A stretch of 64,000 nt of DNA from Escherichia coli (GTDB lineage: Bacteria > Pseudomonadota > Gammaproteobacteria > Enterobacterales > Enterobacteriaceae). Shown here one piece after another: positions 19,290-21,938 of this stretch. The position numbers and the translations under genes are program-made. The stretch lies in NCBI RefSeq assembly GCF_001677475.2, contig NZ_CP015229.1, one strand, 5' to 3'. Under the pieces are notes generated by a model. That model had not been told where the DNA came from, made no database searches, and saw nothing but the letters and a program-made list of their open reading frames with translations. The stretch's first letter is position 1, and each line of letters begins with the position of its first letter.

Positions 19290-21938
19290 TTATTGGTTAG
19301 CGGAGATAGCGACTGGCGGTGTACCCGGAGTGAGCTGCTGCGTCTGTTCCTGAATCACCGGTTTGATTTCCAGCGGAGTGGCAGGCTCCACCGCGCCTTT
19401 TTGCTTACACGGCAGTAACAGGCCGTTGAACAGATCGGCAGGCAGCGGGTCTGGCAGGGAGATCTCACAGTGGGAAGCCCCATTCCATGAGACACTCATA
19501 CGTTCGCCAGCTTTTACCCCGGCCAGATAGACGTTGCCGTCATCGTCAACCAGGCCGACCTGCTGGTCGTGTTCGTTTTTCACTTCTGCACCAAATGGCG
19601 GATAACTACCATCACTCATGCGCAGGACAGCCATCGCCTTTTGCCCACTGATGACCGCAAATTTACGGTAGCCAATGGCTCCTTCGGTGAGCGTCGCCTG
19701 AACCACTGACTGCGTGGCTTCGGCATTCTCTGGCAGTTTAGTCAGGTCAATAGTGGCCTGGTTACGGTAGTAGTTATTGACGTCCGCAATAACAGCTTTA
19801 CCGAACATGTTGGTGTACACCGCTGAACCGTTACCTTCGACCGGTACGTCAGCCACGCCGTCAGCGTCGATAAGCAGGCGCGTACCGCCCATGTTTTGAG
19901 TACGATGCAACGCGCCACCGTGCGCCGTTAACGTGGCTCCGCCTTGCAGCGACAAGCCGGCAGAAGTGTATTGCCCTTCATGGTAGTTAGCACTCAGATC
20001 CACGTGTGCCATTGAACCGTCATGGCTGTAATAGCCATCCACGCTGGAGTGATTTTCACTGCTGCCAACGTTTATCTGATAGTGGCTGGCGTCATCAATA
20101 CGGTTGAAGTATCCCACCTGACTGCTGTCTGAACCGCTACCGTAGTTGCCGTTGTAACTCACGGTGCTGTTATCACCCCACGGCATACTTAAGGAGATAT
20201 AGACGCCTTTGTCGGCGCTGTTGTCATACTCGTAGCGATAACCCGTCAGGGAGATACTCATGTTACGAATGCCGCCCATGTTAAAATAATGGGAGAGCAT
20301 GACGTTGTAGTTGGTCTGCTCCTCGCGATCCCAGTATGTATGACGCGTATAGTTCAGGTAAACAGAAACACCAACATCCCTGAAGTTCTGGTTATAGGTG
20401 GCGGTGTACATCTCTTTATCATTGCCGGCGCGAACCATTTCGCTGTCATTCGCGTCCAGATACTCGCTCATGGTCATATAGTTTTCTTCAGAGAAGCGGT
20501 ATCCGGCGAAGGTGACGCGGCTGTTTAGATCATCAAAGTCTTTGGAGTAACTGACGCGGAAAGAGTTACCGTCGAGCGTCCCCTTGCCGTAAGCGGTTGA
20601 ATCGTCAAGTCGGGTATGTGAGTGGGTAATATCAAACGCCATCGCGCCGAAAATGGAGAGATCGCGCCCGATGCCAAGCGCGGCAGACTGGTAGTTTTCA
20701 TCGCCCAGCGCCCCGCCGTACAGCGACCAGCCATTGGCTACCCCCCAGGACGCTTCACCACCGGAGAAGAATCCGCCCTGTACATGGTGTCCCCACTCCT
20801 GCGGGCGCCCCATCATCACTTTATAGCGCACCTGACCCGGGCGCGTCAGGAACGGCATGGAAGCGGTGCTGATGTCATACTCCTGCACCTGGCCGTTCAG
20901 CTCTTCAATGCGCACATGCAGCGTACCAGAGTTAAATTCACCGAGATCCTGAATACGGAATGGCCCGGCAGGCACCTGGGTTTCATAAATTATGCGCCCT
21001 GCCTGACTAACGGTGACTTTCGCCGCCGTATGCGCCACGCCGGAAATATCCGGAGCATAGCCGCGCAGGTTCGGCGGCAACATTTGATCGTCGGTGCTGA
21101 TGCTACCGCCGATGTAGTTAAAACCATCAAAAATATCAGAATCGAGGTAGTCTTCGCCGAGTGCCAGTTTGGCTTTCAGGCTCGGTAACGCACGCCAGGC
21201 GTAGTAACGGCTCCAGTCCCAGTTTCTCTCGGTGCTGTTATCCGTCTCTTCATCGTTACTGCGGGTATGCTGATAATCACTCTGCCAGTCGGCGCGCAGG
21301 CGCCACGGCCCAAGGTTAACGCCAACCGTACCATTTCCGCTGATGTCGTTGCTGTCATCGCCGCCATTTTCTTCGTGTCGGGTTTGGGCGTTGATGCTGT
21401 AATCGGCAATGAAACCGGGAATGCCATCATCCCAGCGTGAAGGTGGGTCCCAGTCTACATCGCTGTATTCAAGATAAGCCTGCGGTAAGGTGATGAGCAG
21501 TGCGAACTGACTTAAATCAGCACGTATTTCCAGACCGTCAAGTTGACCTGGTTTGAGGCATTTACCATCGCGATCCCATTGCAATTTTTGTGCAATATCT
21601 TCTTTAAAACCAAGCTGCGCCACCAGCTCTGGCGACAGGCAGGCGTAAGTTTTATTTTTATCGTTTTCTGACGCATACCAGTAAATATCATATTCATCAG
21701 GTAACGGCTGTTTATTTACCTGAACCTGTAAATTATATTTACCCGGTTCAACATAACCCTGGCTGGAAAAACGCTTCAGATCAATTTTCGTGTCGCCTTT
21801 TAATTCCAGAAAACGGGAATCAAACTGAATATCTTCGTCGGCCCAGGCATTGATATGGCATCCAGATATTGCCATAGCAACGCACCAGGGAAGCGCCCGT
21901 AAGCGGAAAAGGGAATGGTCAGGCATACACGTATCCAT
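19290..21938 (-). CDS. yfcU: outer-membrane fimbrial usher, uninterrupted reading frame
   Basis: Single 882-codon ORF of usher size; probable start at MPDHSLFRLRALPWCVAMAISG signal sequence a few codons inside the track ORF. Confidence 0.85.
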   Translation of the reverse strand: MDTCMPDHSLFRLRALPWCVAMAISGCHINAWADEDIQFDSRFLELKGDTKIDLKRFSSQGYVEPGKYNLQVQVNKQPLPDEYDIYWYASENDKNKTYACLSPELVAQLGFKEDIAQKLQWDRDGKCLKPGQLDGLEIRADLSQFALLITLPQAYLEYSDVDWDPPSRWDDGIPGFIADYSINAQTRHEENGGDDSNDISGNGTVGVNLGPWRLRADWQSDYQHTRSNDEETDNSTERNWDWSRYYAWRALPSLKAKLALGEDYLDSDIFDGFNYIGGSISTDDQMLPPNLRGYAPDISGVAHTAAKVTVSQAGRIIYETQVPAGPFRIQDLGEFNSGTLHVRIEELNGQVQEYDISTASMPFLTRPGQVRYKVMMGRPQEWGHHVQGGFFSGGEASWGVANGWSLYGGALGDENYQSAALGIGRDLSIFGAMAFDITHSHTRLDDSTAYGKGTLDGNSFRVSYSKDFDDLNSRVTFAGYRFSEENYMTMSEYLDANDSEMVRAGNDKEMYTATYNQNFRDVGVSVYLNYTRHTYWDREEQTNYNVMLSHYFNMGGIRNMSISLTGYRYEYDNSADKGVYISLSMPWGDNSTVSYNGNYGSGSDSSQVGYFNRIDDASHYQINVGSSENHSSVDGYYSHDGSMAHVDLSANYHEGQYTSAGLSLQGGATLTAHGGALHRTQNMGGTRLLIDADGVADVPVEGNGSAVYTNMFGKAVIADVNNYYRNQATIDLTKLPENAEATQSVVQATLTEGAIGYRKFAVISGQKAMAVLRMSDGSYPPFGAEVKNEHDQQVGLVDDDGNVYLAGVKAGERMSVSWNGASHCEISLPDPLPADLFNGLLLPCKQKGAVEPATPLEIKPVIQEQTQQLTPGTPPVAISANQ

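Follow-up and report, generated by a model that had tools for sequence, protein, structure and literature searches.

The long minus-strand frame at positions 19290..21938 of the window, as we call the whole 64,000-nucleotide stretch of Escherichia coli DNA analysed here, is a complete, conventional PapC-like usher gene of a chaperone-usher fimbrial operon. We consider it very probable that the gene is an ordinary intact usher belonging to a divergent yfc allele, and that the rod subunit gene of the same operon, yfcV, was lost very recently in a subclone.

The usher gene and its operon

In the list of open reading frames the frame is single and uninterrupted, with 882 sense codons from an ATG start, and its translation contains zero internal stops, which bears out the claim of a preliminary description of this DNA that yfcU is one uninterrupted 882-codon ORF. 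Translation probably begins at the second ATG (MPDHS..., 21926), which leaves the first four codons (MDTC) outside the CDS. The ATG at the MDTC start position is absent in K-12 and in the wild strain HS-01, and the exact usher sequence is on deposit (ANO90128.1 and others) as a protein of 878 aa from MPDHS. The upstream ATG was rejected as the annotated start, since an exact look-up of the 882-aa form came back empty and the 878-aa form is the one on record.

The N-terminal domain for binding chaperone-subunit complexes is present (Pfam PapC_N, PF13954, 5.7e-37, profile 1-146 of 146), the beta-barrel/plug domain is complete (Pfam Usher, PF00577, 1.2e-185, profile 3-549 of 549) and the C-terminal domain is also present (Pfam PapC_C, PF13953, 3.6e-15), with residues 755-841 matching structures of the PapC CTD (3l48, 2kt6). 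The PapC structure 7lhg_C matched residues 34-841 of the usher with E 3.5e-221. NCBIfam NF011812, the model for Stf/Yfc ushers, scored 1817 bits against a cut-off of 972 and was covered end to end (1-878 to 1-881 of 881). Because of the usher Pfam domains, the PapC match and this score above the NF011812 cut-off, a chance ORF is ruled out. Judged by the NF011812 score and an amino acid identity of 84.6% to K-12 YfcU over the full length, the protein groups with the YfcU/StfC ushers. Inspected by eye, the N-terminus, MPDHSLFRLRALPWCVAMAISGCHINAWA/DED, resembles a signal peptide ending in A-W-A. An intact ORF is by itself compatible with an inactive usher, as missense or regulatory defects may be present.

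The operon consists of seven genes on the minus strand between sixA and smrB and is colinear with K-12 W3110 on both sides; gene order and sizes match yfcV-U-S-R-Q-P-O of K-12 (Table 1). On the same strand as the usher lie a chaperone with PapD_N and PapD_C domains, four genes with a Fimbrial domain and a DUF2544 adhesin. The usher and all genes downstream of it to YfcO are full length, and yfcV is the sole broken gene of the operon. Promoter-like matches in the non-coding region 22566..23236 were no more numerous than in shuffled sequence. The hairpin between yfcV and yfcU has a visible equivalent at the same position in other alleles and looks like a putative intrinsic terminator or attenuator.

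Table 1 Features of the yfc operon in the window
Feature	Position	Strand	Details
yfcV major-pilin pseudogene	22009..22565	-	ATG 22565; premature TAG 22079..22077 (162 aa); original TAA 22011..22009
Remaining single copy of 7-bp unit AACTTTA	22092..22098	-	two tandem copies in intact sister loci
AT-rich non-coding region sixA-yfcV, 670 bp, ~31% GC	22566..23236	-	presumed operon promoter/regulatory region
GC-rich hairpin followed by TTTTT, between yfcV and yfcU	21969..22001	-	12 pairs; stem-loop 22001..21974
yfcU-type fimbrial usher CDS	19290..21926	-	878 aa + stop; maximal ORF to upstream ATG at 21938, 882 aa
yfcS-type periplasmic chaperone, 250 aa, intact	18518..19270	-	ORF + domain match
yfcR-type fimbrial subunit, 171 aa, intact	17987..18502	-	ORF + domain match
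yfcQ-type fimbrial subunit, 162 aa, GTG start, intact	17502..17990	-	ORF + domain match
yfcP-type fimbrial subunit, 179 aa, intact	16966..17505	-	ORF + domain match
StfH/YfcO-family putative tip adhesin (DUF2544), 288 aa, intact	16098..16964	-	ORF + domain match

The preliminary description treated the window as carrying a K-12-like allele, and this part of it has to be given up. At the nucleotide level the yfcU allele is ~77% identical to that of K-12, and the DNA of the whole operon ranges from 74 to 81%. Over most of its 64 kb the window has 96-99% identity to K-12, with divergent patches beside the operon and also at 9-11 kb and 25-27 kb. Among 5,426 complete RefSeq E. coli genomes the best identity to the yfcU allele of the window was 89.8%; 792 genomes fell at 80-90%, 3,947 at 60-80%, and 687 gave no megablast match. 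The fadIJ-sixA flank reached at most 94.2% identity to any complete E. coli genome and evgAS-yfdE up to 98.7%. An origin from an Escherichia other than E. coli, which the low identity of the genes beside yfc (about 94%) had suggested, was rejected in view of the K-12-like identity over most of the window and the E. coli labels of the deposited proteins. The exact proteins of the window are deposited under E. coli labels, and the 90% protein cluster (P0002, 420 members) includes E. fergusonii, unclassified Escherichia and Pseudocitrobacter. Synonymous divergence (dS) of the usher from the K-12-type allele was ~1.5. Strain SE11 has provided an earlier example of divergent yfc alleles in E. coli (PMC2608844). 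The yfc alleles are old and exchangeable, and strong purifying selection maintains them.

The deletion in yfcV

The yfcV frame stops after 162 codons, and the other 29 residues of the pilin continue in another frame; the 162-aa product lacks the last 30 residues. Compared with K-12, the gene carries a 7-bp deletion. From the first K-12 alignment it was read as a deletion without a repeat; this was rejected when the sister allele (loci L023, L024 and L027) showed the loss of one tandem AACTTTA, with CA[AACTTTA][AACTTTA]AAGCC in the sister allele and CA[AACTTTA]AAGCC in the window (22098..22092). The lesion has the form of a classic slipped-strand deletion at a tandem repeat. Leaving the deletion aside, yfcV is identical in both frames to an intact 187-aa protein (P0152) that is listed on 205 contigs.

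The same deletion is present in the assembly GCA_016118665.1, which aligns with the window over 14,637 nt without a gap and with a single mismatch. It recurs in GCA_018682815.1, and 13 contigs in all encode the 162-aa product. By contrast, yfcV is intact in GCA_019141475.1 (L024), whose only differences from the window in 12,564 nt are one SNP and this indel. Because the deletion is seen in separate assemblies and is absent from the near-identical GCA_019141475.1, we regard it as real, very recent and confined to a subclone, and not as the artefact that the preliminary description had allowed for. A literature search on the yfcU pseudogene and the yfcV frameshift found nothing specific to either.

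The truncated YfcV covers 3-118 of the 151 positions of the Pfam Fimbrial profile, and for the intact YfcV the alignment with the structures of FimF and FimA runs to the last residue. The lost segment, NFKAWLVGATDAPDLGGFEANTTFQITYL, corresponds to the last two beta-strands at the C-terminus and includes the penultimate Tyr and a Gly at -14. In PapD-pilin systems the penultimate Tyr and the Gly at -14 mark the C-terminal strand used for chaperone binding and donor-strand complementation. A complete Yfc operon needs an intact major subunit with this strand, and yfcV of the window lacks it. The truncation would be expected to abolish assembly of the rod.

By homology, the usher would be a gated beta-barrel pore whose N-terminal domain would receive chaperone-subunit complexes, and whose C-terminal domains would keep hold of the fibre as it grows by donor-strand exchange between subunits. 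In the subclone, replication slippage has very recently removed one of the two 7-bp repeats in yfcV, and the truncated YfcV, having lost its C-terminal strands, would leave a rod subunit that is neither chaperoned nor polymerised. The usher is still intact because the intact form is its normal state and too little time has passed since the yfcV lesion arose for more damage to follow.

One alternative, which we think unlikely but worth weighing, is that the operon is partly disabled and still exports a short adhesive tip fibre without the YfcV rod. This would fit with the PapC-like usher and with a chaperone, three minor subunits and a YfcO-type adhesin that are all full length. The premature stop of yfcV lies upstream of the native hairpin and 66 nt before the natural stop, so little extra polarity on the genes behind it would be expected. 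P-pilus papA mutants lose the rod and keep receptor binding. However, tip or adaptor roles of YfcR, YfcQ and YfcP are only putative.

Lesions and constraint in yfcU

In current RefSeq, yfcU of W3110 is a pseudogene ('internal stop'), and the contrast with K-12 drawn in the preliminary description stands. Its further claim, that the K-12 usher is a split pseudogene, was right about the pseudogene; the lesion itself consists of one TAG in frame, at codon 579 of 881 (Tyr579, TAC -> TAG), as located by the pairwise K-12 alignment that it had proposed. Because there is a single in-frame TAG, the K-12 lesion is a nonsense codon, with no frameshift or rearrangement. Codon 579 reads TAT in the window and TAC in HS-01, which carries the K-12 allele, and encodes Tyr at every other locus examined. 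The operon of the window is therefore damaged by a different lesion from that of K-12, as had been suggested: a 7-bp deletion in yfcV as against an amber codon in yfcU.

The distribution of the amber codon was followed with 39-mers centred on codon 579, in which a central mismatch leaves no 28-nt megablast seed, searched against the 5,426 complete E. coli genomes. The TAG form was found in 363/5,426 and the TAC form on the same allele in 1,411, and because of these counts the intact usher is the norm and the K-12 state the exception. The TAG matches listed (n = 40) were mostly K-12 laboratory strains (MG1655, W3110, BW25113, DH1, NEB10-beta, HB101, MC4100); among the matches listed, the K-12 amber hardly occurs outside the laboratory lineage, of which it is a marker.

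The integrity survey of yfcU and yfcV that had been proposed across phylogroups was made in limited form, with 11 non-K-12 complete genomes taken across the identity ranking, the last of them picked for its partial match, which biases the sample. yfcV was annotated as intact in all of them (11/11) and yfcU in 8/11. An intact usher is thus not the remarkable feature that the preliminary description took it to be, either in this sample or by the codon 579 counts. The three exceptions had three different lesions: L3Cip3 has an IS1 insertion; HH35, where codon 579 is still TAC, has a +A frameshift at nt 707; and 23CRST030 has an amber at Trp18 that is masked by a PGAP start at a downstream Met, giving an 862-aa annotation. 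The Trp18 amber was present in 27 genomes, as against 2,884 with TGG in the same context.

A further amber, at Gln149 (CAG -> TAG), was found at two loci, one from Escherichia (L022) and one from the type strain of Pseudocitrobacter vendiensis (L005), and the two backgrounds differ at 4/33 surrounding bases. In neither the K-12-type nor the O157-type context did any complete E. coli genome have TAG at Gln149. We considered a Dcm (CCWGG) deamination hotspot for this change and rejected it, as both affected alleles read CCGCAGG and have no Dcm site; the O157-type allele has CCCCAGG at codon 149, yet no complete E. coli genome has TAG there. All four independent nonsense lesions of yfcU seen here are ambers, with codon 149 struck twice. 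Given the 311 possible nonsense changes in the gene, the chance of an amber-only pattern is ~0.03-0.06, a marginal and post hoc figure.

The dN/dS of the usher was 0.03-0.08 in every comparison, with dS ranging from 0.085 to above 1, and stayed within these values among close alleles (dS 0.085-0.17), which shows sustained, strong purifying selection. In the 36 genomes studied by Wurpel et al. (2013), yfc alone among the core fimbrial clusters was scored as intact throughout, and yfc fimbriae have been described as cryptic under laboratory conditions (PMC3559732). Inactivation of yfcU recurs, each lesion being rare, young and restricted to a single lineage against a conserved background. Of the recurrent independent loss suggested in the preliminary description, the recurrence was supported by the further yfcU lesions, and a general decay was not, given their rarity and the low dN/dS.

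It is improbable, in our view, that the usher is a silent relic, open through its youth, in an operon that is being lost as a whole in Escherichia. The independent yfcU lesions (ambers at Tyr579, at Trp18 and twice at Gln149, the IS1 insertion and the +A frameshift) would agree with such a loss, as would the genomes without a megablast match, although these may hold alleles that are too divergent to be matched. However, each lesion is rare, the K-12 amber is a laboratory marker among the matches listed, and the strong constraint even between close alleles, the intact majority of the sampled genomes and the survey of Wurpel et al. all stand against it.

A far more speculative reading, to which we give little credence, is that the two-copy AACTTTA repeat acts as a slippage off switch for the rod and leaves usher, chaperone and adhesin whole, with low-level frameshift rescue or a rod-less tip as a tuned state, and, separately, that the amber-only lesions could point to usher gating that is leaky or suppressible. 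With one repeat deleted, yfcV reads ACT TTA AAG in the zero frame and so includes T_TTA_AAG, a slippery heptamer; a ribosome that slipped by -1 at this site would re-enter the original frame exactly and make a YfcV that lacks only Asn-Phe. No stimulatory RNA structure was evident downstream of the heptamer (folding against shuffled sequence, z = -1.55). Least credible of all is a sequencing or assembly artefact in yfcV that would leave the whole operon intact: a short tandem repeat is a plausible site of assembly error and the near-identical assemblies with the deletion could conceivably go back to one strain or pipeline, but a 7-bp loss is unlike the typical homopolymer error, the deletion occurs in at least two separate NCBI assemblies and in further ones, and sister genomes were assembled in the two-copy form without difficulty.

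Implications and comparison with known systems

We return to the reading of an intact usher in a divergent allele with a recently lost rod subunit. Public records already annotate the intact usher frame, which is ordinary, and apart from getting the annotation right the finding carries little weight. For yfcU, K-12 serves poorly as a reference, and a strain in which the usher frame is open needs no flag as unusual. Annotation pipelines can mask nonsense lesions of the usher when they place the start at a Met further downstream, which happened with the Trp18 amber. The gene yfcV is in use as a marker of uropathogenic E. coli, and typing by its presence or absence would call the strain of the window positive despite the frameshift. 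More generally, within a chromosome that is conserved elsewhere, the yfc locus carries allele classes that are very old (dS above 1) and exchangeable.

Among structurally characterised ushers, PapC (PDB 7lhg, 2vqi, 3fip) shares with the window usher the layout of N-terminal, barrel and C-terminal domains, with a match over the full length. The P pilus is, however, another fimbrial type with other subunits and another adhesin. The Stf system of Salmonella (StfA/StfC/StfD; NCBIfam PRK15283-15285) is alike in that the window usher passes NF011812 end to end, and the NCBI family name of the adhesin, StfH/YfcO, makes the same link. The best NCBIfam matches of the chaperone and YfcV are StfD and StfA, both under the curated cut-offs (337 bits against 447 for the chaperone, and 74.6 against 267 for the truncated YfcV), and Salmonella ushers are about 56-61% identical to the window usher in amino acid sequence.

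The yfcOPQRSUV operon of K-12 shares with the window its site between sixA and smrB, the gene order, the gene sizes and an usher at the identity given above. The two differ in that codon 579 is TAG in K-12 and TAT in the window, and in that yfcV is intact in K-12 and frameshifted in the window. The allele family found in E. fergusonii, cryptic or unclassified Escherichia and Pseudocitrobacter has ushers 93-100% identical in amino acid sequence and an identical gene order. Unlike the window, most members of this family keep an intact 187-aa yfcV, and some have an usher lesion of their own, namely the Gln149 amber of L022 and P. vendiensis.

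Nonsense changes in the usher gene yfcU

The identical nonsense change at Gln149 was seen in two yfcU alleles whose backgrounds are clearly different, one in the Escherichia genome GCA_012374395.1 (locus L022) and the other in the type strain of Pseudocitrobacter vendiensis (locus L005). Because the 33 nt around the codon mismatch at 4 positions between the two loci, the shared amber looks like a parallel mutation and not a shared tract. There is no Dcm site at the amber codon of either allele, and a TAG at Gln149 was not found in complete E. coli genomes, in either the K-12-type or the O157-type context.

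The Trp18 amber is carried by E. coli 23CRST030 and 26 further complete genomes, and falls within the part of yfcU that encodes the signal peptide. The gene carries no pseudogene flag from PGAP, which instead starts it at a downstream Met, giving an 862-aa protein (WP_000017011.1) that would lack the signal peptide; the inactivating lesion is therefore masked by the annotation. The independent yfcU nonsense lesions, counted as codon 579 in K-12, codon 18 and codon 149 twice, were all amber (4/4, with neither TAA nor TGA). As TAG is expected to make up 40-50% of the possible nonsense changes, an all-amber outcome has P of about 0.03-0.06, and we regard the pattern as marginal and post hoc.

Location of the features described (coordinates refer to the window unless a locus is named)
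Feature	Position	Remark
Gln149 CAG to TAG in yfcU	L022:6647-9283; L005:813-3449	codon 149 = window about 21482..21480
Trp18 TGG to TAG in yfcU	L031:3613-6258	E. coli 23CRST030
yfcQ start	17990	
GC-rich 12-bp hairpin and T-run	21969..22001	minus strand; between major-pilin gene and usher
Slippery heptamer T_TTA_AAG in yfcV	22095..22089	minus strand
Low-identity patches vs K-12	9001..11000, 15001..15880, 25001..27000	87-94%
Region with the csc-like sucrose locus	33454..39099	locus about 5.6 kb
tRNA-Arg(CCT)	33454..33528	adjoins csc-like locus

Possible expression signals within the operon

As a result of the 7-bp deletion in the major-pilin gene yfcV, its zero frame contains a slippery heptamer. 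A -1 ribosomal slip there would restore the original frame, and the product would be YfcV lacking only Asn-Phe; no convincing RNA structure was detected downstream of the heptamer (z = -1.55). Every other yfc allele in the comparison shows a counterpart of the hairpin between the pilin and usher genes, at the matching position and with other stem sequences. The hairpin probably serves as an attenuator to set the ratio of pilin to usher. In the window, yfcQ has a GTG start codon, as it does in the near-identical relatives of the window (L003, L024 and L027); the start is ATG in other members of the same allele family.

Probable exchange of the operon and its surroundings

A yfc operon is also present in Pseudocitrobacter, where the usher protein is 93% identical to that of the window (P. 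vendiensis, L005; Pseudocitrobacter sp. 73, P0131). This occurrence in another genus suggests that the operon was transferred horizontally as a whole. The patches of unusually low identity affect housekeeping genes (smrB, fadJ/fadI and the mnmC region), the remainder of the window being 96-99% identical to K-12, and the fadIJ-sixA stretch had no match above 94.2% among 5,425 complete E. coli genomes. Together, the patches and this ceiling suggest that recombination has brought in DNA from other Escherichia lineages around the yfc locus.

At tRNA-Arg(CCT), K-12 carries the CPS-53 prophage remnant, dsdC and most of dsdX, whereas the window has the csc-like sucrose locus instead, encoding an MFS oligosaccharide permease, a fructokinase, a sucrose-6-phosphate hydrolase family protein and a LacI-family regulator. 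This arrangement is already known from some E. coli.
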